Source: Mytilus edulis (lineage: Eukaryota). From it: a DNA stretch of 64,000 nucleotides. The stretch spans positions 38,502,001 to 38,566,000 of the forward strand of contig NC_092353.1 of the NCBI RefSeq assembly GCF_963676685.1, given 5' to 3'. Made by a program: the position numbers and the translations under genes. Shown one piece after another: positions 2,462-55,634 of the stretch. Every line of letters starts with the position of its first letter. Position 1 is the stretch's first letter. Below the pieces are notes generated by a model. That model saw nothing but the letters and a program-made list of their open reading frames with translations, was not told where the DNA came from and made no database searches.

Positions 2462-5400
2462 GTATTGTGTTTTTGATTTCAATGCTACATGTACTACTTA
2501 CACACTGATGGTCAGATATGTTAGTTATTTTTTAGTGCCCTTTGATACAAATAAAAGAATTTATGAGGTTTACCGTATGTGACAGCAAGTCAACAATACG
2601 AATTACCAAATTTCAAATTACTGTGGATTCATTGATTTTCATCAAGACCAAATTATATGGGTTTGAGGAAAACTTGTATTTTTGTGGATATGTTAATTTG
2701 TTGTTTTGCAAAAGTCTGTATATATACCTATAATAAATATGTTTTACGTTGAACTTTTCAATTTGTGGTTTAACTAATGCAAGGAAATCCAGAAAAATTG
2801 GTATCCCACATGAAATAATAATGAATAGGGGAGGGTTTTTTTACATGTCGCACCATATCTCATAAACAATCTATGATTATTGCTTAAAACTTTACACATG
2901 TCTTTGTTGAATTAATCTTAAGATTTGTATACTTTTTGGTGATGATTCAAAATTTCATTTTTGAGTTATTGAGTATTTTGTAAAAAAGGGGGAGGTTTTT
3001 TTTTCCATGTTGTGCCGTATCTCAAAAACAATTTATGATTATTGCTTAAAACTTTACACACTTCTTTGTTATATTAATCTAAAGATCTGTATACTTTTTG
3101 TTGATGATTCAAAACTTTATTTTGGAGTTATTGAGTATTTTGTTAAACAGGGGAGGTTTTTTTTAACATGTCGCGCCGTATCTCAAAAATAATTTATGAT
3201 TATTGCTTAAAACTTTACACACTTCTTTGTTATATTAATCTAAAGATCTGTATACTTTTTGGTTTTGATTCAAAATTTTATTTTAGTGATATTTAGTTTT
3301 TCGAAAAAAAAAAAAAACAGGGTTAGGGGTTTCACATGTCCCGCCGTGTCTCAAAAACAATATATGGTTATTGCTTAAAACTTTCTCAGAAACTATTAAT
3401 GATTATTGCATAAAACTTCCACACAAGACGTCAGGCGTATCATGCGCTCATGGCGCAGCTGTTTATTAAATTATAAAAAATCTAGAGCAATTATTTTAGA
3501 CAATAGATAAGAATAACTTGATAGAGCAAACACCTTAACAAACAACAGCAAAATATTGTGCTGCTAACAGAAAAAGTATCTACCATATTAATATCTAAAA
3601 ACTAAGTTAAAAGGATGAATTTGAATTTAAGGAGATGTGGTATATGATGTGCCAATGAGACAACTATCTACCACAGTTCAAATGAAGTGGATGTTAGCAA
3701 TTATAGGCAACTGTACCACCTTCAACAATTTAAAAAAAGTTAGAAACAAAACCATACTACATGTATAGTTGTGACTTGATAATGTTCATCAGTATCCCTA
3801 ATACAGCAACAAGGTGCTTCTTGAAATCTATATAATATTTCAGTGCCTGATCCTCCAAAAAATGTTACAATAGCTGGAACATTGGGTAAAGATAACTTTA
3901 ACATAAGTATCACTGCACCTGATGAACTAAGAGGAGACATTGCTGGTTACAGAATATTCATTTATGGGAAAAGTTATATGGACGAGAAATTTGCATACAG
4001 GAATTCTATTATAATCACTGACACTATGGACAACATTTATCATGTTACTGGCTTACAAGCAGGTAAGGAATGAAAGAACTGCATTCAAATATATACTATT
4101 TATTCCAAAATTAATGTGATTTTTGAAGAGTGGATAAAACTAATTAATTTAATAATCTGCACACAAATTTATCTATCAGATATTAGAATGTAACTTTTTA
4201 TTAATGAGATACTCACCAATTCATTATTCGCTTTTATAAAGATCTTGCAATAATTTCTGAATTAACAGTACTCAATCATTTTAATATAATTGTACAACAT
4301 TTTTTAACATAGAATAAACTAAAGATATGGTATATTAACTTTGAAACTTAAGAAATAATTGATGCAAACTATACTTGATGGTAGTTTTAACATGGGCGAT
4401 AGTGAGGTATAAAATAACACAATTATAATGCCTACCCATGTTAAAACTACAATAAAGTATAGCTTGCATCAATTATTTCGATTCTGAATAGGACAAGTAA
4501 GGTAATTTCTATGTCTGATAAGTATAAGTGTAAAAGCGTTTGTGTAGGCTTCTCCATGAACCTCCCTGTTATGGTTTATAAAGAAACAAACGGCTGGCAC
4601 TGTGATTTTTCAGAGGGAGGAGTTTGAACAGCCAGCATGAACGGTTGTCGTATCTAGGTCAAATATGTCAATTTTGGGATGCAACACAAATACAGTCATA
4701 ATATAAATGAATTAGTAACATCATGTGCACCATTTAAGAGTTTGAAAGTGTTTTAAAGTTAAGGAAATATATTAAGTGCATGATAAATTGATAAAATTAT
4801 TATTCTGAAGAAGTCAACATACGCATGTGCAAACAAATTTTATTGGATTTAGAGCATGGGTTTGTTCATGTCATATTAGGAATTTGATTAGTTTACATGC
4901 ATTAGTTTAAATTATCATGCTTTATAATGATTAGGTCAGTTCAAGGGGAACCATTCCTGGTAGGCCAATTTTAATTAGTATGCAGTTTTAATTGTATTTA
5001 GCACATTCTATTCAGATGAAGAATATTTGGCCCTGTCCTCTCAGTTATAGTCTATTGACTTTAAAACTTTTGCTAGGTTAACATACATATTAGTTTGTAA
5101 TTACATCAGTTTAAGATGAACAGCTTATGTTATTAAAGTCAATGATATTTGGTATGCAAATTTATTGGGATTTATAAGTTTCTTTTCCATGGAGTATTAT
5201 TATATAAAGCCCTACCCCTCATCATGGTTCACCTGACCTTGACCTCATTTTTATGGTTCATTTGTCAATATAATCTTTTCATGGTTTGGTCTGTTTCTTA
5301 TATGCTAAGAGAAATAGGTCACTCACGGTATTCAGTGTATGGAATGATTGTAAGGTGTACTTGTCTTTCTTGCTTTGTTTATCTGACTTTGACCTCATTT

Positions 5401-23400: not shown

Positions 23401-26400
23401 ATTATTTTTATATATTTTTTTTTAAAGTACTGTAATTTATTGTGATATTTTTATTAATGTGAAAAATGCAACAATACTGAGTTCTCAATTATAAAACCTC
23501 ACACTTATAATTTCAGTACTTATTTTCCTTTCAAGTTGTATTACAAGTGAATAAGGAATGAACAAAAGTTACACGGTATCAGTTAAGCGCTGAAACAGGT
23601 ATATACGCTCTAGAAAGGTTATTTCCCATCTACAAACATAAGAAGGTACAAGACTTAAGACTGTAAATTTTCTTAAGTTTGTTGAATGTATTCTATTATA
23701 ATTGAAAGTAAGATATCATTGCATAAATTGAACTGAGGTCTTTATCTTACAGGATTTGAAGCAGTTGAGTCCAAGACACACAACAAATTCTGCTAACCTT
23801 GACGAAAACAAGCCAAAGAATAGATACACCAATATATTACCTTGTAAGTATTTCTCAAGGACTATAAATATAATGGCCTCTGCATGATAGGATTCCTTCT
23901 TGAAAATTAGGTATGCAGTTTTCTGGAATGAAAAAAAACACCAAAATTTGAAATTATAGTTCCAGGAAACCTTGTTTTAAAATAATTAACTCTTTTCACA
24001 TACTGTGGATTAATTTATTTTGTGGGTACCAATTTTCGTGGTTTGAGGAAAACTTGATTTTGTTGTTTTGACAAAGTCTGCATATATTCCTTTTGAAAAT
24101 TTGTAATTCCCTTGTACCCATAAAATAATACATGAAAATTGGTATTCAACAAATATTGATGAATCCACAATAGATATGACAATGGTGAAAAAGAGTAAAT
24201 GATGATTATTATGAATACAATTTTTGTATTAGTCAAGCAGTTTATGTATACTTATATTTTCAGATGACCACAGCAGGGTAATCTTAGCTCCAATGGTAGA
24301 CGAGGAAGATTCGTCAGATTATATTAATGCTAATTATATACCTGTAAGTTAAGTACATATTTAAATTTATAAAGTTTTTTGGTCTGTGCATCCATTCTTT
24401 CTTCCGTCCGTCCCACTTCATGTAAATGTTTCCAGTCAAGGTAGTTTTTGATGAAGTTGAAGTTCAATCAACTTGAAACTTAGTACACATGTTTGTTCCC
24501 TATGATATAATCATTATAATTTTAATGCCAAATTAGAGTTTTTACCCCAGTTTCGCAGTCCACTGAACATAGAAAATGATAGTGCTAGTGGGGCATCCAT
24601 GTACAAGGGACATATTCTTGTTATACGACCGCAAAAATTTTTAATTTTTGGTCGTATATTGCTATCACGTTGGCGTCGTCGTCCTGCGTCGTCGGCGTCG
24701 TCGTCCTGCGTCGTCGTCGGCGTCGTCCGAATACTTTTAGTTTTTGCACTCTAACTTTAGTAAAAGTGAATAGAAATCTATGAAATTTTAACACAAGGTT
24801 TATAACCACAAAAGGAAGGTTGGGATTGATTTTGGGAGTTTTGGTCCCAAAATTTTCGGAATTAGGGGCCAAAAAGGGCCCAAATAAGCATTTTCTTGGT
24901 TTTCGCACTATAACTTTAGTTTAAGTAAATAGAAATCTATGAAATTTTGACACAAGGTTTATGACCACAAAAGGAAGGTTGGGATTGATTTTGGGAGTTT
25001 TAGTTCAAACAGTTTAGGAATTAGGGGCCAAAAAAGGGCCCAAATATGCATTATTCTTGGTTTTCGCACAATAACTTTAGTATAAGTGAATAGAAATCAA
25101 TGAAATTTAAACACAAGGTTTATGAACACAAAAGGAAGGTTGGGATTGGTTTTGGGAGTTAAGGTCTGAACAGTTTAGGAATTAGGGGCCAAAAAGGGGC
25201 CCAAGTAAGCATTATTCTTGGTTTTCGTACCATAACTTTAGTATTAGTAAATAGAAATCTTTGAAATTTAAACACAAGGTTTATGACCATAAAAGGAAGG
25301 TTGGGTTTGATTTTGGGAGTTTTGGTCCCAACAGGTTTTTAGGAATAAAGGGCCCAAAGGGTCCAAAATTGAACTTTGTTTGATTTCATCAAAAATTGAG
25401 TAATTGAGTTTCTTCGATATGCCGGATCTAACTGTGTATGTAGATTCTTAATTTTTGGTCCCGTTTTCAAATTGGTCTACATTAAGGTCCAAAGGGTCCA
25501 AAATTAAACTTAGTTTGATTTTAACAAAAATTGAATCCTTGGGGTTCTTTGATATGCTGAATTTAAAAATGTACTTAGATTTTTAACCGGATTTTTGTGA
25601 CAAAAATGTCGGTTATTGATTTGGGGATGTACGGCGGGCGGGCGGTCGGTCGGGCGGTCGGTCGGGCGGGCGGGCGGGAATCAAATGTTGTCCGTGCATT
25701 AACTCATGAACCGTTCAACCAAAGCTTTTAAAATTTTAATATGTTGTTACTGACAACTAAATGAAGGTCAAGTTCAATAATGGCGATTTTGACTTTTACC
25801 GTTCAGGAGTTATGGTTCTTGAAAGATTGAAAAATGGAGTTTACAGTATTGTCCATGCATTTACGCATGAACTGTTCTACCTAAGCTTCCCAAATTTTAA
25901 TATGTTGTTACTGATGACAAAATGGAGGTTAAATTCAATAATGGCGATTTTGACTTTTACCGTTCAGGAGTTATGGTTCTTGATAGATTGAAAAATGGAG
26001 TTTCTAGTCGTGTCCGTGCATTTACGCATGAACTGTTCTACCTAAGCTTCCCAAATTTTAATATGTTGTTACTGATGACAAAATGGAGGTCAAGTTCAAT
26101 AATGACGATTTTGACTTTTACCGTTCAGGAGTTATGGTTCTTGAAAGATTGAAAAATGGTGTTTCCAGTCGTGTCCGTGCATTTTCTCATGAACCATTCA
26201 ACCAAAGCTTTTGAAATTTTTATATGTTGTTACTGATGGCAAATTAAAAGTCAAGTTCAATTATGACGATTTTGACTTTTACTGTTCAGGAGTTATGGTT
26301 CTTGAAAGATTGTGAAATGGCGTTTCCATTCACGTTGTTGCATTTACTCATGAACCATTCAATCTAAGCTTTTCAAATTTTAAGATGTTGATACTGATGA

Positions 26401-29400
26401 CAAAATGGAGGTCAAATTTGATATTGACGATTTTCACTTTCACCATTCATCAGTAATGGTTCTTGTGATATTGCCAGGACACAAATAAATATTAATAAAT
26501 CCGGTTTGCTGTCATTGTGACAGCCTCTTGTTGATTATTGGCCCAGTTTTCAAGTTGGTCCAAATCGGGGTTCAAAATTAAACTTTGTTTGATTTCATAA
26601 AAAATTGAATAATTGGGGTTCTTTGATATGCCAAATCTAACTGTGTATGTAGATTCTTAATTTTTAGTCCCGTTTTCAAATTGGTCTACATTAAATACCA
26701 AAGGGTCCAAAATTAAACTAAGTTTGATTTTAATAAAAATTGAATTCTTTGGCTTTTTTGATATGCTGAATTTAATCATGTACTTAGATTTTTGATTATG
26801 GGCCCAGTTTTCAAGTTGGTTCACATCAGGATCCGAAATTATTATATTAAGTATTGTGCAATAGCAAGAAATCTTCAATTGCACAGTATTCAGCAATAGC
26901 AAGAAATCTTCAATTGCACAGTATTGTGCAATAGCAAGAAATTTTCAATTGCACAGTATTACGCAATAGCAAGAAATCTTCAATTGCACAGTATTGTGCA
27001 ATAGCAAATATTTTCAATTGCACAGTATTGCGCAATAGCAAGAAATATCTAATTGCACAATATTGTGCAATAGCAAGAAATTTTCAATTGATTGGAGTTA
27101 TCTTCCTTTGTCCAGAATAGTAGTTGAATCAACTTAAATCATTGTTTTATACAATACACAATGTATATTCACTTTTACTACCAACTGATAAATTAAAACA
27201 ATCTTTACTATTCAATGATAACAAAGGGAAAGGGGGATGTGAGAAAAAAAAGGGGGGGGGGGTTAAACTTTTCTCATTTCAGATTTCATAAATAAAAAGA
27301 AAATTTCTTCAAACATTTTTTTGAGAGGATTGATATTCAACAGCATAGTGAATTGCTCAAAGGAAAAAAAAGTATTTTAAGTTCATTAGACCACATTCAT
27401 TCTGTGTCAGAAACCTATGCTGTGTCAACTATTTAATCACAATCCAAATTTAGAGCTGAATCAAGCTTGAATGTTGTGTCCATACTTGCCCCAACCGTTC
27501 AGGGTTCAACCTCTGCGGTCGTATAAAGCTGCGCCCTGTGAAGCATCTGGTTTTATATTTATACCCCCGCTTTAAAAAAGGGGGGGGGGTATACTGTTTT
27601 ACCTCTGTCACTCCGTCAGTCCGTCAGTCAGGCCGTCTGTCCCATGAATATATTTTGTCGCATTTTTCTCCGGACCTACAATACAAGGATTTCTGAAATT
27701 TGGTTTCAGGGTTTATCTAAGTCAGCTATACCGTGTGATGCGTTTTCAGATTGATCACTTGACAACTTCCTGCTTACCGAACACTTGTAGGATTTTACAC
27801 ATGATAGCCAAGTTGAAAATTTTCGTCACATTTTTCTCAGGAACTACAATACAAGGATTTCTGAAATTTGGTTTCAGGATTTATATAAGTCAGCTATACC
27901 GTGTGATGCATTTTCAGATTCATCACTGGACAACTTCCTGTTAACCGAACACTTGCATATTTTTACACTATTAATATTATCCACTTGCGGCTTGGATATC
28001 ATCAGTGAGCAATAGCTCGCAGTTTCATGTTTTGTTTTTTCGAAGTGTTATTGATGTGCTTTTTTTTAAATATACTTTCCTTTAGTTGTCTTGTCTGTTT
28101 AGAAAGCTACAGAATAAATGAAATGTTTGGAGCTTATAGTTTAACAGCATAAACTGTTTGTATAAAGCCTTATAAAAACAACTAGGACAACTATATGTAA
28201 TACGGCCTTTAACAATGAGCAAAATCCATAATGTGTAATATAAGCTATAAAAAGTAACAAAATGTAAAACTATTGAAAGGAAAACAAAATGTGAAATTTT
28301 CAAAAGAAACAAAATGGGAAATTATTTAAAAGGCTTCAGCTGGCCCCTGAACAAAAATGTGTTCTAGTTCAGTGAAAAGGGACATCACACTAAACTCTGA
28401 AACATATAAATAAAAAAAACAACATACAAGAGTTGTAGTAAATTCTGAAACTATCTTTTGAAATTTCATACCTAAATTGTTACTTAACATAAGAATATTT
28501 TTTTTGTAGGGCTATACCTATGGTAAGGAGTTTATAGCTAGCCAGGGACCATTACCAGGTACAGCTAATGATTTTTGGAGGATGATCTGGGAACAAAGTG
28601 TGTCCATCATAGTCATGTTAACAAAGTGTAGTGAAAATAACATGGTAGGTATCATAATAGTAGTTCTAAGAGGAAGAAATATTCTCTAATATGTTACCAC
28701 TGGGACGAATATTACAATATTTGTTCTTAACAAAATAAAGGGTATAGATTATCATTGTTCCAGCAGGAACTGATATTAGGACATTATTTATAATTGTGTT
28801 TCCTGGATTGTTGTTAGACGGAACACATATACATTGTAATAATTTTTAGTATCCAGTTGTATAAGTGATGTTGAACAGATGTAGTTTCCATCTTATTCTG
28901 GTTAGATTACAATTGGCAAAATTTTTGAATTGATAAAGTAGGAGGTAAAAAAAAGGAAATCTCTTCTCTAGGCATATAACCTTTGAGCAAGGTCAAAATT
29001 TCTCTCTTTGACAACAAAATCATGCTTTAGGACAATTTTATTAGTCTAGCAGTTTCAAATTTGAACGTTTTACAAAATAAAAATATGTCACATAAAGCAT
29101 GGTATTAATGTCTGAATGTGGAGGAGTTTTATCACCAATGACATTTTCTTATTTTTTGACGCGTGTTACAGGTAAATTCTAATAATAAAAATGTATAATT
29201 TATTTTTCAGGATAAATGTGAACATTACTGGCCACATGCAGCCAATGAACCAAAGTGTTACAACGATCTTATGGTCAATGTTACCTCTGTATCAAACATG
29301 GGAAAATATGATATTCATATCATGGATGTTTGTCTGGTAAGTGGAATTAGTTTTTTTTTTTTTTTTAAATATGGTACTAGAATCATGGCAATCATGTCTG

Positions 29401-40635: not shown

Positions 40636-43600
40636 GCTTGAAACTAATGACTGTTTTTTATTTTTATTTGTTCTGGAAGGTTATAAACATGTTTAAGAGG
40701 GAGAGGCTTTCCTACTGAAGCACCCTGTCTCACTCTGGAGTTCGTACAGTTTCATCAATGTTTTGTTTGTTAGATTTGCATCTTTTCCATCAATTTCGAG
40801 AATTAAACACCAATAAACTACTGTGGCCATAATCACTGTTTCACATGTTTCAGTGTTCCTGATGATGAAAAATTAATAAAAATGTTTGAAAGTAAAAAAT
40901 GTCCTTTCATTACATTTGAGATTTACAAGTATTTGCTCCGATGGAGGTTATCAAGAAAATACATGTTGTTCCCACTTCAATCGTTATAATATTTGTATTT
41001 GTTTTCATACTCCAACTGGTTCGTTACCAATGACATTGGGCTTGAAATGTCGAGTAGAATACTCGCTTTTTGGATTATTTCAACGATATATTTGCTAGAT
41101 TATCAAATTATGATTATTGAATATCACTATAGGTATAAAACCACTTATTGATAGCCCCATTGCTTTCTTTGTTTAACCGAATTTCAACTTCAATTTCAAG
41201 CATTAATGGCTACTTCTTAAGTTCAAATAAAGTGACAGTCATTTCATGTCAAACTATAACTTATCCTGACTTGTGCTGAAAATTCAATATATACATGTAC
41301 CTGTAATTGCATATAAGAGCATACTGGTTCCCGGAAGTTTGATAAAACAAAAAAACTTATATTGACAACAATGTGTGAACAAAATAAACATATATTACAG
41401 GTAAAAATGTAAAAAATATGGATACAACAGTCAAAATTGCGATTTAATCTTAATCACAAGAAAACAAAACAAACACATATGCCAGCAAAGAAAAAGGCAT
41501 ATGCACAAGGCACATTAACGAAAAAGAAAGACAAGAATACAAAAAATTACCATATCACAATATCAAAATGATGGGATGTATAAGTACCGAGACAGGTAAA
41601 ATGTACATTTACCATAAATAGACAACAGTAAAAGTCATATCTTGCGAAGACAAATAAAAGAAAACTTGAAGGATGTTCGCTTGTCATATTTTGAAATTTT
41701 TGTAAGATTTTTGGAATCCTCTGGTTTTATCCATTTGAATGTCTTAACAATTGTTGCCCATCGACCCCCATTTTTCTCTTTATAAATCTTATATATACTT
41801 ATAAGCCATCTGTAAAAGTCTTATAACATCTTTGTTATTTTAATAGTTTTTGAGAACTTAAACTTGTCAATGATCAAGCTATGAAAAATTTCAATGCGGA
41901 AAGGAGCATTTTTTAGGGGTAACAAAGCCTCAAAAGGACCTAGGATAGACCTTGAACAACTACAAGCATTTGACATTGTTTCTTTCAACTGCAAACATGT
42001 GCGGAATAGCATGGACTGTATTAAAGATATTTTATTTAAAGAAAATTCTAAAATCGTTTGTTTACAAGAACACTGGCTTTTTAATTTTGAGAACAATAGC
42101 CTTGATGAATTGTTTCCAGAGTGTGATTGGACTTCTAAATCAGTAGATGAGCTCAACCCCATCGGACCAAATCAGCGACACGTGGATACGGTGGAGTTGC
42201 CATACTCTGGAGAGAAGACATCAAGCATTTAATAGAGAGACTTGAGGAGGGCAATGAGAGAATCGTCTGTGTCAAAGTAAATGTGTCACCTAAACCGTAC
42301 ATCTTAATGTGTGTATACATGCCATGCAGGGGTTCCAAGTAGGTTAACTCTGAGTTCAATGATATACTTGACCAATTAAGAGAAATAATTAATAAGTACT
42401 CCCCAAAATATCAATTTGTCTTGTGTGGTGACTGGAACTGTGTTATATCTAGTAGGTCCCAAAATATAGAATTGTCAGAAAGGCAGGCTGCCCTGAAGAA
42501 TTTTCTCCAAGAGACAAATCTAACCTTCAATGAGACTGATGTTACCTTCAGTATACATCCGAATTGCCAAAAAGTCTCCACAATTGACTATATCTTCAGG
42601 AGCAATGAAATAGATCCAGATCTAAATCTCACAAAACGCCTAGATATGTTGCCTTCAAATACCTCAGATCACCACCCCATTCATACTACTATACAATGCC
42701 ACTTTGAATCAAAAATTAAGAAAGTAGAGAAGAATCCGTATCCATCAAAAGTAAATTGGTCTAAAATAGACCTGGAAAAGTATCAAACAGAAATTACAAA
42801 TAAAATTAATGAGCTAGAACCAAAGAAAAAAATATTGACGTCAAAGATCTCATCCATGCTTTAACTGTAGTCCAAGAAATTTTTCAAAAAAGTCCAAACC
42901 TCATAAACAAAAAAATACTCACATCTGGAACGATGAGATAGCTCTTGCACTGTTAAACAACAAAAAAGCCTTGTTTGATTGGAAAGAGGATGGTAAACCG
43001 AAATCTGGTAAAAGTGCAACTCTTAGAAAAAATTCTAGATCTGAACTTCCAGAGGGATGAGAAGTATGCCGAAATTATGAATACACGGTCCGGAGACACC
43101 AAATCATTTTATAAGTTAATAAATAATCAGCGCAAGCAAGGAAAGACCTCTATAGCTGAAATTATAGTACAAGGAAACGTATATGACAATACAGCAGAAG
43201 AAATAATAATTAAAGGGTTGGAATGAACATTTTGCTAACCTGGTTACTCCTGAGGCTGACCATACCAACAGGGAGGCAGACATTGATGTCATCATGGAAT
43301 CCTGTCTTGACAACGCAATCCCAATTTCCTTTTTATTTTTAGAGATCCAGAATGCTATTAACAAATTAAATAAAAACAAATCTCCGGACATTTATGGAAT
43401 AACTGCAGAACATTTCATCCATGGTGGACCAGACCTGACTGGTGCATTGACAAAAATAATCAACAACATTTGTATATCATGTGTTATCCCAGATTACATC
43501 AAGATGGGAATTATCACCAATTTTCAAAAAGAAAGGTTTGCCAACTGATCCGAAAAACTACAGAGGAATTACAGTCCTCCCTGTTATTGGTAAAATTCTA

Positions 43601-45569
43601 GAGATACTTCTTAAGGAACATCTGTGGCAAATAATCGCTGCCATCCAAAACCAATTTCAGAGAGGATTCACGTGTAAAATATCACCATTATTTTGCGCTC
43701 TTTTACTGAATGAAGTGATTATCGATGCAGTATACAGAAAAACCCTTTTATATGTAGCACTGCTCGATGCAAAATCTGCTTTTGACGTCGTAAACCATAG
43801 TAGTTTAAATAGGAAGTTATATTTAGCAGGGATTTCCGGTTCATTATGGCTTCTTTTGCATGATCTAAGTGTTGGTGCTCAGACATCAGTTCGATGGGAA
43901 AATCTTGTTTCTGAACCCTTCGATATTTAGCAGGGAGTTAGACAGGGAGGAATATTAAGCACAGAGTTATATAAACTTTATATAAATGATGTTCTTAACC
44001 AAGTAGAAGACAGTGCACTAGGATCCTATATTGGACACATTCACTGTCCTATACCAACCTGTGCAGATGATGTTACTCTGGTAGTGAATGACCCTACCAA
44101 TATGCAAACCCTTTTGTCAACCGTGGAGAATTACAGTCAACAGGAGAAGTATTCATTACAGCCTACAAAATGTAAAATTATTAAAACTGGGAAACCAAAA
44201 ATAGAGGATAATTTCAATTTCATATTAAATGATACACCTATTCAAAATGTTGAAACAGCTGTACATTTAGGAATTACCCATAGTAGTAACCCGCGGCAAA
44301 CCATTCCAATCCATGTTCAGGAAAACATCAACAAAGCAAGGAGAACAATGTACAGCCTGATGGGAACAGGCATGCATGGCAAGAATGGTCTTAATCCCGT
44401 AGCATGCCTACAATTATTCCAAGTTTACGTGTTACCAGTACTCATTTATAGCCTAGAAATACTATAACCAAATTCAACTCAACTGGAACCAATTGAAGTC
44501 TTCTATCGGAAAAGTAACAAACAAAATTTTATCTATCCCCAATAACACAACAGACATGGCCGTATATATACTGTCGGGTACCATTCCAGTAATCAGTAAA
44601 ATGCATAAACTAGCTTTGCAAAAATTTCAAGACAGGAGAACTCTATAGAAAGACAAGTTGCAGAAAGACAAATTCTTATCTCAACTGCTGTAAAGGACAG
44701 TTGGTTCACAAACATTAGATCTTTATTAATTAAATACAGCCTACCATCAATTTACAACATTTTAGATGAACCACCCTCGAAATTAAAATGAAAGAACCTT
44801 ATCAGGAAAGCGATTGACACCTACTGGGTTGATCATGTGGTGACCATGTCTGTCTACTACAAGAGTATTTCATATATCTCTACAGCTAAGGGGACGACCA
44901 TTTGATATTCTGGAGGGGGCGGCAGGAGGATTTTGAAAATAGATAACTCAGCCATGATCATCACAAAAATAAATGGTTTGTTCTGTGATAGTTTGAAAAT
45001 AAATTACCTGACTGGCAATGTATTGAAAATAAATAACTCAGCAGGTATAATCGAAAGTATGAGATGGCACCAGATTCTTCGTAAATTCATCTTTTCCCCC
45101 AAAAAAATCGCGAAACACTTCCCAATTTTTTTAATAATAAAAGTATAAATATTATTTAAATATACTTGATATGTCTGAAAATTGGTTTTATTTAACTTGA
45201 GGTATTTTGTCTCAGGAAACCTTACCTCACTTTTATTTTAACATATTTTAAATGCTTCATGTAGGAAATTTCAACTAAACACTTGTCTCCATATCAAATT
45301 GTGTTCACAGCGAGTGCCTTGTAAGAAGCAAATTCTGTTTTCCCTCAGACGTAACCCTGATTTTTCAGGATCAATATTTCTTATTTATTTGTCTTTTGTT
45401 CATTGATTGCCCTTCTGTATTCTGTTAGTGTTGCATTCCTTTTGTAATCTAGTAATTTTGTTGTGAACTTGATCATGAGTTTAAAAAAAAACGGCAGCCA
45501 CAGACTTAACTATGTGAATTCCATTTTTACTTTATCATGCACATTGGTCTTATGATCTTGTCCCTAGAA

Positions 45570-46739
45570 ACTTTTCTACCCTGTACACAAGTATTCCACA
45601 TTCCAAACTAAAAGACAAATTGAAAGAGTTGATATTACTTTGCTTCATAAAAAAGAATGGCCAACGTAGATACAAGTATCTTGTCTTAGGGAGGGATAAA
45701 TCCTACTTTGTAAAGAATCACTCTGATTCAAACAAAAAATTCTCTGAAACTGATATTATCAAGATGCTTGATTTCTTGATTGACAACATATTTGTTACGT
45801 TCGGAGGACGTGTTTTTCAACAGACTGTCGGCATTCCAATGGGAACAAACTGTGCCCCTCTACTCGCCGACTTGTTTCTTTATTATTATGAGGCTGACTT
45901 CATGCAGGAACTTCTTAGGAAGAAAGATAAGAAGTTAGCAATATCCTTTAACTCTACTTTCCGCTATATAGATGATGTTCTTTCACTAAACAATTCAAAA
46001 TTTGGTGACTATGTGGAACGCATCTATCCAATCGAACTAGAGATAAAGGATACTACAGATACAGTTAAGTCGGCTTCATATCTTGACTTACATCTAGAAA
46101 TTGACAATGAGGGTCGGTTGAAAACAAAACTTTACGACAAAAGAGATGATTTCAGCTTTCCAATTGTGAACTTTCCATTTCTAAGTAGCAACATTCCAGC
46201 AGCACCTGCATACGGGGTATATATCTCCCAATTGATACGATATTCCCGTGCTTGCATTTCCTATCATGATTTTCTTGATAGAGGTTTGCTGCTCACAAGG
46301 AAGCTGTTAAACCAAGAGTTCCAAATGGTGAAGTTGAAATCATCCCTTCGTAAATTTTACGGACGCCATCACGAGTTGGTTGACCGTTATGGAATAACCG
46401 TTTCACAAATGATATCGGATATGTTCCTTATGTCGTAACTACAATCCCCTTCCCTTTCATGAATATGACCTACCGAATTAGACTATTTACCGGATTTGTA
46501 ATCACTTAAGCAACACGACGGGTGCCACATGTGGAGCAGGATCTGCTTACCCTTCCGGAGCACCTGAGATCACCCCTAGTTTTTGGTGGGGTTCGTGTTG
46601 TTTATTCTTTAGTTTTCTATGTTGTGTCGTGTGTACTATTGTTTTTCTGTTTGTCTTTTTTATTTTTAGCCATGGCGTTGTCAGTTTGTTTTAGATTTAT
46701 GAGTTTGACTGTCCCTTTGGTATCTTTCGTCCCTCTTTT
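45570..46739 (+). mobile_element. 5'-truncated Penelope-like retroelement (Naiad-type) nested in the Harbinger element
   Basis: FSTLYT, GIPMG, RYIDD, LYDKRDDF, SQLIRY motifs; ORF stops at 46438 with no C-terminal GIY-YIG; ~300-nt 3' region repeated elsewhere in the window. Confidence 0.88.
45572..46438 (+). CDS. Penelope-like reverse transcriptase, C-terminal portion (uninterrupted but 5'-truncated)
   Basis: 272-aa ORF of the track plus in-frame upstream FSTLYTSIPH. Confidence 0.8.
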   Translation, partial: FSTLYTSIPHSKLKDKLKELILLCFIKKNGQRRYKYLVLGRDKSYFVKNHSDSNKKFSETDIIKMLDFLIDNIFVTFGGRVFQQTVGIPMGTNCAPLLADLFLYYYEADFMQELLRKKDKKLAISFNSTFRYIDDVLSLNNSKFGDYVERIYPIELEIKDTTDTVKSASYLDLHLEIDNEGRLKTKLYDKRDDFSFPIVNFPFLSSNIPAAPAYGVYISQLIRYSRACISYHDFLDRGLLLTRKLLNQEFQMVKLKSSLRKFYGRHHELVDRYGITVSQMISDMFLMS

Positions 46740-48559
46740 AAGTCTTACACTGAATTTATACATTTTGCTTTGAGACCAAAATATTGTCAAAAATTATTAA
46801 TACAAAACTTGCATTTTCAGATTATGAAAGGGTCTTCGGAACACTCAGAAAGCATGATTTTGCATCATTTGTTCTATAGCTTCTTGAGCCTTCAGTGGCT
46901 CCAAAACCCTTTCAAAAAAATTTTTCTCGCTCCGCTCGGCGAAATATGTTTGCCAATACTTTTAAAAGAGCCAAACTTTAATACTATGTATGTATGCAAT
47001 ACATTTATATGCAGTTGGGAATACAAAAGATTCATTTCTGCAGAGGATGATGATTAATTCTGATTAAAATGGTACATATTAATGACTTGACTATACATGT
47101 ATTATTTATAATAAACAAATCATTTAAAAATTGTATGTTTTCGAATATCATAAATATAGTTGTGAAAATGAATAATCAGTCCCTTGTTTTAATGAAAATG
47201 AAAAATCTTGCTTCAATAGTGCAGAAAATGAATAATCTGTCCTCTTAGTTTACAAAAATAAATAACCGATCAAAAACAAATCCTCCTACCCCCCCCCCCC
47301 CCCCCCCCCCCGAATATCAAATGGTCGTCCCCTAATTATAATACTGGTCATCTTCACAATGCTCTGGCAAGTATCCAGACTTCTGCAAAAGACATCCAAC
47401 GTCTCCCCATCAAACTATGACTCCTTATTGGTACATATATTCTCCAATGTAATAGGGCAGCTTTTAACCAGATTGACATCGACCCAACATGTCTTTTGTG
47501 TGAGGAGGACTCTGAAACATTATATCATTTCATTCATTCATGTCCTGCTTTAGCTTCTGCTAGAAATCATCACATGCTTGAACTTTCACACATTCTCAAT
47601 AATAGCGAGCTCTGCGTTAAGTGTAGATCATAAGAAAAGCTAGATATTAGTACACAACTAATATTGGATGCTAGTGCCTTGCTCTGTAAGTGTCAATGTA
47701 AATGTGGATGTGCTGACTTTCTTCAACTTGTAGCGTACATTAGTAGAAAACTTTGCTTTGCGTTGCATATTAGACGTAATACACTATTATTAACATTACC
47801 GACGAATAAAAAGAAAGGGTTACTTGCAACAACTCAGTCAAAGGCGTGAATATTTAAAATCTAAATTATTCTGTTTTAGATTTTGAAAATTGTGAGAAAC
47901 ATTTGTGGGTGTTATATACACCAATTTAATTATTCTACTCTGAAACCAGAGGTGTGCCTTTCAAACTTTAAGGCAGGATATTCATACAAGACAAGACAAG
48001 ACAAGACAATGGCTAATATCTCGAAAACAAGCACATTGACCTATATATTTTTTGCTTTTTTTTTGTTCTTTTATTAATCCCCTATCAATATACACTACTG
48101 TTATGAAAAGCTTGTTATTTTGAAACTGAGTAGCGAATCTCCTTAACACGTAACTGAGATGATAAACAACGTCAGTTATGAGAAATACTTCAAGACCTTT
48201 GTGTATTATTTGTGAAGTTAAGATAGTCTTGGTATCTTTGATGAACTTTTTCAGAAAAAAGGATGTGACGTTAATTGACATGTTTCATAGTTCACAAACC
48301 TTCTGCTCAGACACTGGTGATGTTTTATAAAGTCTGGGAAATGCATATGTTATATGCAGGAGGGGTTGGTATATCCCATTTAAAAGATTTTTATTGTGTG
48401 TAGTTCTTTCAATTGTTTGTGCTGTTGTAACAATTAACACTAGAATATGATAGTGAAAATTGCATGAGACATAATCAATCAGAACCTACATGAACAATGG
48501 ACAATATAACAAAATAGTAACTTTTTTAAACTCGCAGCACCTTCCGCACAAGCATATAG

Positions 48560-51404: not shown

Positions 51405-52986
51405 TATCTATCATAAACAATTGAGTGAAATATATAATAAAATGAAAGTCTTAGGAAATTATTTGTCCCCAACATAAATGATGAAATATTTTTTATAGTT
51501 AGATAAAGGAAATGTAGACTATTTTGTTCCTTTTGACCGCGTGACGCCATTACATACATAAATCAATAATCCAACAAATCTAAAAAATTAAAACAAAACT
51601 TTATAATTTTCATGCACCCAAAGCTGATTTTAGGATTCACATTTATCAGGATCGATCAAAGCTGAATTTTTGAAAACCAAGGATTTAAGAACCGAGACAA
51701 CTGTTGAGCTTTATACCAAAGAAGACATACAAATGAAAGGCAAATGCGTCTAAAATCAACCTCGACTGAGGCAGTTTAAATATTAGTTTCTTGAAAATTT
51801 ATAGTTTAATGAACGGATTGTTTAAAGAAGATTTGATATCAATCATAACAGTGCCGAAGTGCTGACTACTGATCTGGTGATACCCGCGGGGAAGATGTCC
51901 ACCAGCCGTGGTATCAACCGGTGGTGTAAAAACTCAAAACCACATTATTATAAATTTCATTAAATAAGTGGTGAGATTGTCAATTTCAAAATGTTTCTAC
52001 TTAGAGTAGTCTGTTATAATAATATGAGGAATCATAGTTAAAACTATGCCTATGAAGGCAATAGTAGTATACCGCTGCTCAATAATCATAAATAGCTTGG
52101 TTTAATGGCTTGTCAAACTGCCCGCTTATATGACAATGTTAAAAATCTCGCTAAAATGACAACATTACTTGTAATGTACAGTACAAATAAATGCACGAAC
52201 ACTAAGGACAGAGAAATACATAAATACATGAAATCATAGTTCATTTCAACATGTAAGCAACAAATTCACAACGAGCACCTAAAACTAATTTACGACACAA
52301 CACAAATATAGCACCATAAAATGATTAACTTATAAGATTAAATGTATCATTTCCTGTCTTTACAAATGCAACTTTTTATTTACGATAGTTTTATGAGAAA
52401 AACAAAAAATAACAGCATTTATCGATTTGATGTTTATTTTCAACTTTGCAACACAGAATTTACCGAAAGATGCAGTGCAACGCAAAACTTGCCATGTGCG
52501 ATCATCATTCATGAGGAACAGGATCTGCTTACCCCTAAAAAGCCCTTGGTCTTTGGATTCGTGTTACCCAGTTTAGTTTTCTATGCTGTACTTTGTATAC
52601 TGTCTTTTGATCGTTTTTATTTTTTTTTGCCATGACATTGTTTTTGACTTTTTTTTTTTTATATTTTTGCTTTTTGTCAATGTAATAAGATTTAAACAAT
52701 TATCAAACTTGTGCTTTAATAATAGTAAATATGTTGAATTTCTGCCATATCATTTTTATTATCAGCTGAAGCACAAGTCAACACAAATATGAAATAAATA
52801 GCACTATACATCTTGCTTATTTGTCTATTTTGTGCTGCAGCTTGTTTGGTTAGACTGAATTATTTTGCTTACTATTTTGTAAGTACATTTCCAGTGTAGG
52901 CATATACAGGAACCGACTTCTTATTCCATAGATTCAATTTGTTGCAAATAAACTCATCATAGATACCGGGACTAAATTTTGTATAT

Positions 52987-53030
52987 ACGCCAGACGCGCG
53001 TTTCGTCTACAAAAGACTCATCAGTGTCGC
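52987..53030 (-). ncRNA. Minimal type I hammerhead ribozyme (intact core)
   Basis: GCGACA CUGAUGA GUCU-UUUGU-AGAC GAA ACGCGCGU C UGGCGU; GUC cleavage triplet. Confidence 0.85.
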
Positions 53031-53350
53031 TCGAATCCAAAAAAGTTAAAAAGGCCAAATAAAGTATGAAGTTGAAGAGCATTATGGACCAAAATTCCTA
53101 AAAGTTTTGCCAAATTCAGCTATGGTAATCTATGCCTGAGGTAGAAAAGCCTTAGTATTTCAAAAATTCAATATTTTGTAAACAGTTAATTCATAAATGT
53201 AACCATATCAATGATAATTCATGTCAGCACAAAAAGTGCTGACTACTGGGCTGGTGATACCCTCGGGGAAATAAATCTCCACCAGCAGTGGCATCGACCC
53301 AGTGGTTGTAAATAAACTCATCATAGATACCGGGACTTAATTTTGTAGAT

Positions 53351-53394
53351 ACGCCAGACGCGCGTTTCGTCTACAAAAGACTCACCAGTGACGC
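53351..53394 (-). ncRNA. Minimal type I hammerhead ribozyme (core variant CUGGUGA)
   Basis: GCGUCA CUGGUGA GUCU-UUUGU-AGAC GAA ACGCGCGU C UGGCGU. Confidence 0.75.
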
Positions 53395-55634
53395 TCGAAT
53401 CCAAAAAAGTTAAAAAGGCCAAATAAAGTATGAAGTTGAAGAGCATTGAGGACCAAAATTTCTAAAAGATTACTATTGTTAAGTTAAATATAACAAAACG
53501 AAAATACAAAAGATATGTACAAATATGAAGAAATGCATTTAAATATTAAGGTTCTATATTGTCAACTTATATTATCACAGATTATCTATCTTAAAAGCGT
53601 AAATTGCGGACCCATGGTTTCCTGAAAATATATATATGGCTGCTATGAAATATCTCCTTATTAAATGCAGGGTTCTTGATGAATGTATCATTTAAGTATT
53701 AATTTATATCATTTTATCAACTTACAGCTGATATCAAACGTTGCATTTGTTGTGTTATGACTGATTGTAGCCACAATTGCATTGCTATGGTTCTGTAAGA
53801 TAAGATTTATAAGAGTTTGATTCCAAATTATTTTCGATTGAATTGCCTGGTTTTTTTTATATATATATTGGCATAGGTCTCTTAAAACAAAAAATCTGGA
53901 GTTGTTTCTTTATATATGTAATTAAGAAGTTCTACTACTTCAAAAGAGATGGGTCTATTTTTATATTGAAAACTTTTGTTTCTAGATATCAATATTCACA
54001 TCTTTTAGATTATGAACAATTATTCAATTATGTTTATGGCGCATTAAATTTGTCTTTTTAATGTTTTTATTTGATCTCCTCTGCTTATGCGATTTTTTAG
54101 TTGCTTTTTTGTTTTCTTAATTACTAGACAATCATGATGACAAATATAAAGGCAACAGTAGTATACCGCTGCTCAAAAGTCATAAATCGATTTAGAGAAA
54201 TAAAATCTGGGTTACAAACTAAACCAGATGAAAACGTACGTGTATAAGAAAACTCTTTGGGAAAAAAGTCCCGTTTGAATGGTTTTACATTACTAATTTT
54301 TTGGGCCTTTCATAGCTTGCTGTTCGGTGTGAGCCAAGGCTCCGTGTTGAAGGCCGTACCTTGACTTATAATGGTTTACTTTATAAATTGTTATGTGGAT
54401 GGAGAATTGTATCATTGGCACGCATACCACATCTTTCTATATCTACATACAGAAATTTAAAAGAAGAATGTATAAAAATGTGTGTGATATTTTTGTTTCT
54501 ACTCTTGGAAATACTTATAACGAAACACAGTATTCATCAATTCATCATTTTAGAAAGTTGTTATCTTTTTTTCACAACAACAAAAAAAGGAAAATGTAAA
54601 AAATAACTGTTAATAACATATTAAAAGGTGGTTTTAATAGTACAGGGAGATAACTCTGTATAAATCAGATAAAGGTTTTAATCACGTTGTATTGTTAAGG
54701 AAATATTAAGCTTCAATTAGTCAATCTGTTACACATCCAATGATTTTTTTCCGAGAAAGTGTGTCGTTCAAGGTTTTTTTCTTTTTTTTTATATTTTTGT
54801 CAAAGGGTCAAAGTTAATATTTTGTCAAGTTTTATGAAAATCAAACGCGCAAATTTATTTTAGGTGTTTGGTACCAACTGAATACACAGTTTTTAAAACT
54901 ACTGATTCCGTTGTCTCTATGGGGAATCAATGGCAAATGGTGGTTTGAATATTATAATTTGGTGCTTTATATATTTCATATTACTTGATCGACTTACCAG
55001 TATTACAATTTCGGAAGGGTCAGATTTGAGGTGAAATAACTCTTTCATATTGCCGTCAAAAATATCATATTGCGAGTACAAATCAAACCCCCTATGTAAA
55101 AATAAACAGAAAAACATAAACAATTTTTTTTAAAAGTCAATCGAAAATATTGAAAGAATGATAAAATAAATAATAAAAAGACGCAACAATAAAAAGATTA
55201 ATGTCCATAATTTTCATAAAAAAGAATTAGGAAAACAAATTATAATTAGAACAGAGTTATTAAGGACGATGCTTGCTACATGCACTATCACTAGCATACG
55301 ATTAGATTTTGCTTCTCTTGTTATTTTAATGCCACATATTGAATAAAATAAAGGGTAAATTGGTCTTGATCCCAATTGAGTGTTAGATATAAAATAAGAA
55401 GATGTGTTATGATTGTCAACGAGACAAGTCAACATCAGAGACAAATGACATAGAAATAAATAACTATAGATCACCGCATGGCCTTAAATAATAAACAAAG
55501 CCTATACCGCATAGTCAGATGTAATAGACACCAAAATATAATATATAAATCCATTCAATCGAGAAAAAAAACTATAACAATAACAGAAACAAATGATAAT
55601 TTCAAGTTATAACATTAACGGTACCAATTTTCCT

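Follow-up and report, generated by a model that had tools for sequence, protein, structure and literature searches.

We propose that the hammerhead-bearing repeat at 52941..53471 on the minus strand of the window (the 64-kb stretch of Mytilus edulis DNA analysed here) was inserted by the reverse transcriptase of a Naiad element, which likely recognises a bulged hairpin present both in the repeat and at Naiad 5´ ends. Judged from sequence comparison, we give this reading a probability of about 0.75. In this family, most copies terminate immediately ahead of the hairpin, which is also found at the start of Naiads, and a Naiad enzyme is therefore likely to spread them. Taken alone, the locus is unremarkable: a decayed, partial member of a mussel repeat family already known to cut itself. 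The mussel retrozyme family (2020), the Naiad clade (2021) and the origin of Xenopus retrozymes from the ends of Penelope-like elements (PLEs; preprint) were already known. What appears to be new is the proposal that the hairpin likely sets the start of Naiad reverse transcription, which would name a helper left open in the literature. The parts of the insertion are as follows.

52941..53471, minus strand: whole insertion, subfamily A, 5´-truncated, spanning roughly 1.45 units from a 5´ end near 53468 to a 3´ end at 52946 or 52941; without target site duplication (TSD)
53351..53394, minus strand: upstream type I hammerhead, stem I intact, A6>G (53385); predicted cut 53357/53356
52987..53030, minus strand: downstream type I hammerhead, core intact, stem I mismatch (53027); predicted cut 52993/52992
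52993..53356, minus strand: predicted 364-nt cut-to-cut monomer, the circular intermediate in the family model (family data in PMC7229834)
53245..53303, minus strand: bulged hairpin of about 60 nt common to Naiad 5´ ends, likely reverse-transcriptase start signal
53304..53315, minus strand: zone where family copies end, putative reverse-transcription start, 4-8 nt before the hairpin
52941..52992, minus strand: 3´ tail, 47-52 nt past the last cut site, stopping right before the expected hairpin start
52985..53191, minus strand: stretch about 70% identical to the Naiad N1 3´ UTR, where the hammerhead is decayed (E 2.4e-14)

The first-pass annotation had described two minus-strand hammerheads 364 nt apart, and this is confirmed by two direct repeats of 167 nt each, 95% alike and spaced by that distance. 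It had also suggested a search with Rfam Hammerhead_1 (RF00163): both sites are indeed matched (53394-53351 and 53027-52987, minus strand, E ~1e-3), but at 25 bits, below the gathering score of 34, at which a scan of the whole window returns no match. Read from the sequence, stems I and II have the expected 6 and 4 bp in both hammerheads, the helix-III octamer is palindromic and the cleavage site is GUC, with C17 at 53357 in the upstream and at 52993 in the downstream copy. Stem I continues beyond an internal loop, and helix III amounts to 2 bp with a 4-nt self-complementary loop. The claim that each copy carries a different defect holds as well. The downstream hammerhead has a full CUGANGA / GAAA / NUH core and three helices open at helix I, as in type I, together with the mismatch in stem I; in the upstream one stem I is whole and the core departs from the intact pattern. 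That pattern occurs once in the window and in none of 100 shuffles. Pairing between loop 2 and the stem I bulge was considered as a tertiary contact and rejected, as no covariation was found among variant copies.

Besides the hammerhead, the repeat unit carries a second structured RNA element, the bulged hairpin. Measured from its last cut, the insertion extends over 476 nt on the upstream side and 47 nt on the downstream side, and both of its units carry the same private variants (52968 and 53332). No ORF of at least 70 aa overlaps it, and among the ORFs of positions 40000-64000, surveyed for a surrounding host gene, only transposon-derived pieces stood out. Fragmented ORFs at 41885-44467 (plus strand) resemble what we take to be the endonuclease and reverse transcriptase of a LINE. 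The window also holds several 161-bp tandem repeats (2827-3384 and 24740-26465) and, at 51862-51932 (minus strand, 62 bits), an isolated diverged copy of the same hairpin without an adjoining hammerhead.

Assignment of the locus to the metazoan non-LTR retrozymes proved right, given the unit size, the single type I hammerhead per unit and the non-coding arrays. The hammerhead 21-mer occurs exactly 17,612 times in the genome (1.37 Gb; control 0), and repeat matches are spread over 14 large contigs. Our family sample, 86 loci taken from the first 100 of the 21-mer places listed, contains two subfamilies, A (364 nt, including the window copy) and B (356-359 nt), which are identical at 294 of 372 columns. 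Units of both are non-coding tandem or partial-tandem repeats with one type I hammerhead each, found in arrays genome-wide. The CUGANGA core is kept in 70 of the 90 sampled alignable copies (98 copies less 8 left out as 5´-truncated), and the A6>G variant of the window is present in 4 of the 90.

Other hammerhead repeats are present too. Two further hairpin-bearing families of about 350 nt (L273:5905-6230, L077:779-1130, L176) have different hammerheads, with changed stems I and II and other palindromes; one of these two and another family, D, together give 5,818 pattern matches. Family D (L150:1604, L153:7307, L198) has hammerheads with a CCGG loop and repeats at a period of about 550-670 nt; its loci give no hairpin match, so its helper may differ. 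Ribozyme families in this genome therefore outnumber the two that have been published. An older repeat resembling a Naiad 3´ UTR (L241-L270) has a core that is mostly CUGGUUA and 89 exact pattern matches, a few of which are ordinary A or B copies.

The ends of the copies suggest how they were made. Terminal copies (n = 81) have a median length of 209 nt and scattered 5´ ends, and 14 of them contain at least two hammerheads. Of the terminal copies, 29 of 34 in subfamily A and 49 of 58 in subfamily B end within 12 nt before the hairpin, a count that leaves out 33 internal copies and 2 of another family. Among the 81 copies there is no clear excess of TSDs: duplications of at least 8 nt accompany 3 of them, compared with 1.1% in swapped flanks, and two of these three are AT-rich or boundary artefacts. 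When B copies were found by the sequence after the cut alone, 29 of 30 extended upstream through the cut and the remaining one about 11 nt. Two inserts (L076, L079) begin at or near the cut, in a sample mostly picked for holding a hammerhead. Because copies run through the cut, the usual template was probably continuous across it, that is, a circle or an uncut multimer.

The hammerhead region also occurs in a longer repeat, which we identified as a Naiad 3´ UTR. Three Naiad families with many intact open frames, N1 (1007 aa), N2 (1053 aa) and N3 (1000 aa), are 56-64% identical to one another and encode an N-terminal zinc finger, GIY-YIG, CxC, DKA and a C-terminal reverse transcriptase in one ORF (motifs by eye). 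Pfam places GIY-YIG at residues 179-269 of N2, whose protein matches the published Naiad_Mgal by eye. All three families carry the hairpin in the interval from a unit end to the start codon of the following unit. Naiad copies stop at the same offset before it in the two families mapped, in 30 of 30 cases for N3 and in 34 of 34 for N1, the latter set being biased because the query ended at that terminus. The repeat thus shares an end signature and a cis element with autonomous Naiads, as befits a nonautonomous element. In addition, about 70% identity to the N1 3´ UTR extends over about 200-290 nt of the unit, takes in the hammerhead, which is decayed in N1, and stops at the retrozyme's own 3´ end. 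Two origins would explain it: the retrozyme may derive by deletion from an old Naiad, or N1 may have captured a retrozyme copy.

The hairpins of A, B, N1 and N3 reach the same minimum-energy fold independently (z -3.1 to -3.5). In an alignment of eight rows, in which the inner part of N2 is misaligned, 97% of cells are paired and both partners change in 11 of 23 pairs, a level attained in 0 of 500 shuffles; double-sided changes are concentrated in the two outer helices (8 of 12 pairs). Since the rows are related and the structure was taken from one of them, we read this covariation as support and not as a probability. The reverse strand folds about equally well (z -2.5 and -4.2), so the strand assignment rests on G-U pairs. 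A model built from six rows without N2 finds the element ahead of the N2 ORF at 28 bits; the hairpin model gives no match in 24 distant metagenomic loci (about 30% identical, mostly partial), and comparison with Rfam at E up to 10 yields no meaningful match to a ribozyme or RNA family. The hairpin is among the parts best conserved between A and B. Measured against A, N3 (54/63) is closest, compared with 44/63 for N1. Exact core strings of the hairpin stand near the start of at least 12 of the 54 published Naiad consensi (8 bivalve, 3 hemichordate, 1 fish) in the part of the PMC8557442 supplement covered, and the outer helices of these 12 pair with further compensatory changes (by eye). We lean, somewhat less firmly than for the window copy, towards a broader proposal: this RNA element of about 60 nt outside Rfam, with compensatory changes from bivalves to hemichordates and a fish, would be the start signal of Naiad reverse transcriptase, and at least four hammerhead families here would use it for rolling copying of circles through the ligated cut.

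Some observations on PLEs in this genome stand beside these results. The window contains a 5´-truncated N3 copy at 45570-46740 (plus strand), 99.8% identical to an intact copy, as well as scattered older fragments of N3, N1 and N2. The N2 hairpin holds an extra inserted stem-loop (L275:1951-2045), and the published Saccoglossus Naiad-1 apparently has one at the corresponding position. PLEs with a C-terminal endonuclease were considered as helper and rejected: at 20 loci the hammerheads, where seen, differ, BLAST finds only separate retrozyme inserts nearby, and the hairpin model has no match. Young tandem PLEs (L148, L149, L157, L158) have a separate 420-aa ORF ahead of a 784-791-aa RT-GIY-YIG ORF, with a minimal hammerhead-like motif in the spacer.

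A possible course of mobilisation can be outlined. Tandem copies would be transcribed, and family RNA is present in reads. Hammerheads would then resolve multimers into single units, which a host ligase would circularise, as published for the mussel family (PMC7229834). Next, Naiad protein might bind the hairpin, nick AT-rich DNA and start cDNA synthesis 4-8 nt 5´ of the hairpin, as the shared fold and the shared copy ends suggest; the young 1000-aa N3 is the best candidate for this step. Copying would pass through the cut site on a circle or an uncut multimer and end by variable drop-off, here after 1.45 units; the anatomy of the copy is observed and the template presumed from it. After insertion each hammerhead gained a mutation, and the predicted effect of these observed changes is that the locus became a poor source of new circles.

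The cleavage step deserves separate consideration, as the first-pass annotation had assumed cleavage by a dimer of minimal, PLE-type hammerheads. That class is not borne out. Minimal hammerheads are defined by having no helix III beyond a conserved A-U pair (PMC4209133), and a 2-bp helix III with a tetraloop therefore falls outside this obligate-dimer class. Dimer cleavage as such is plausible. The helix-III octamer is a different palindrome in each of four repeat families; in a related hammerhead, among the first 100 of 5,818 matches listed, the loop is GCGC in 71 and CCGG in 10 with the same flanks (by eye), and the remaining loops are mostly one step from either. A double-hammerhead fold is predicted at -27.0 kcal/mol, whereas a pair of monomer folds totals -8.9, with no penalty charged for looping the 364 nt. 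Palindromes in four families and the lower-energy double fold make a dimer plausible, but the need for one does not stand: one cloned mussel repeat was by itself able to self-cleave, at about 0.1/min (PMC7229834), and according to a review (PMC7761336), dimer dependence was demonstrated for axolotl whereas most invertebrate motifs cleave as monomers. We consider the mussel hammerhead plausibly dimer-capable; dimer dependence does not follow.

Our RNA data come from one raw run, of which about 6% was read, from an individual other than that of the genome and with strandedness not on record. One B unit collects 5,627 reads with a 3- to 6-fold strand bias, whose direction corresponds to hammerhead-sense RNA under the usual library type; 488 reads span the exact unit junction, where a circle and a multimer look alike. 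At 52968 no more than 21 of 561 reads carry the window allele, and at 53332 no more than 3 of 128; the flanks of the insertion are nearly empty of reads. No pile-up of read ends is seen at the cut site in these RNA reads, which is uninformative since the libraries are fragmented.

With this in hand, the alternatives can be weighed. Release of a 364-nt circle from the transcribed window locus itself through a double hammerhead, as had been predicted, now appears doubtful, and we regard it as unlikely. The fold energies speak for it, as do the palindromic helix III kept across families (GCGC and CCGG loops with the same flanks included) and the intact internal hairpin of the window copy; there is even a workable route, in which the intact core would first act on the upstream site within the dimer and, after refolding, on its own site. 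However, the intact core is attached to the very strand that carries the stem I mismatch, and complementation between the two defects is therefore impossible in either fold; monomer and dimer folds differ solely in which site that core cuts. The upstream hammerhead is moreover predicted to misfold, and its A6>G change might be as harmful as A6C, which strongly lowers cleavage in magnesium (PMC7151607) and from which we extrapolate. In the single, partly read RNA run of another individual the window alleles are nearly absent. With both ribozymes mutated and expression of the locus not seen, the locus probably yields few circles or none. A different question is whether the insertion was copied from an uncut multimer transcript, hammerheads and circles being a side branch, which we find possible though disfavoured. 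In an anole PLE the main template is uncut RNA and ribozyme mutants still insert (PMC11167929), and the missing read-end pile-up would agree with this. On the other hand, in mussel tissue the RNA is mainly circular (PMC7229834), the two units of the insertion share their private variants, and arrays are more alike within than between in 35 of 39 cases (rows not independent).

Finally, the hairpin might serve RNA stability, translation of the Naiad ORF, a promoter, a DNA endonuclease site or a ribozyme and be merely inherited from Naiads, the copy end being fixed by an AT-rich motif. Its position directly before the start codon in N1-N3, the TATT-type motif common to the ends of A, B and N1 copies and the homology of part of the retrozyme to the N1 3´ UTR are in keeping with such a role, which we nevertheless judge quite improbable. 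The hairpin is kept in repeats without an ORF, where it ranks among the best-conserved parts, and its offset is constant in four families although the upstream sequence differs; G-U exchanging with G-C and A-U points to sense-strand RNA, and a ribozyme would have no Rfam counterpart. We therefore retain the hairpin as the likely start signal for Naiad reverse transcriptase. The 2020 papers left unanswered which enzyme spreads animal retrozymes and how it recognises them, and a 2026 preprint has narrowed the question only in part. Since the proposal names a helper whose young ORFs are intact, an element of about 60 nt and a start mapped to within a few bases, it can be tested directly in vitro. 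If true, this would be the first cis signal for Naiads, which are dominant in many bivalve genomes.

Several known systems invite comparison. The mussel retrozymes of PMC7229834 are likewise 350-390-bp repeats with type I hammerheads of two similar ribozyme families, and those of M. galloprovincialis are, by description, similarly low in GC and without LTR, PBS or PPT; about 5,000 copies are given there, compared with 17,612 exact 21-mers here, and the window copy differs in having both hammerheads mutated. The M. galloprovincialis repeats produce abundant circular RNA, ligated by RtcB (Cervera and de la Pena 2020, PMC7229834). The text of that paper covered here names no helper, fixed end or hairpin, and the 2020 review describes these repeats as lacking a conserved motif that would point to a helper (PMC7761336). 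Within the literature text covered, neither a Naiad helper for mussel retrozymes nor such a hairpin is in print.

Closest in concept are the Xenopus retrozymes (Li, Clavereau, Pollet, bioRxiv 10.64898/2026.07.22.740005), for which homology to PLE ends and mobilisation by PLEs were likewise proposed. In the accessible part of that preprint the homology concerns Xenopus only, mussels, hairpins and stem-loops do not appear, and Naiads are mentioned only in coral, whereas the partner here is a Naiad and what the two have in common is an RNA fold that covaries and lies at a mapped end. N1-N3 agree with the Naiad clade (Craig et al. 2021, PMC8557442) in zinc finger, GIY-YIG, CxC, DKA, C-terminal reverse transcriptase, partial tandems and 5´ truncation; the word "hairpin" is absent from the main text as covered. 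Unlike Naiads, which are reported to be without a canonical hammerhead, the retrozyme has one, and it has no ORF. Poseidon of Anolis (Frangieh et al. 2024, PMC11167929) belongs to another clade, starts in an AC-rich stem-loop inside its ORF and can be compared by geometry only, but it resembles the present case in an internal start downstream of a hammerhead, in the requirement of this internal initiation for RNA 3´ of the start and in its AT-rich targets.
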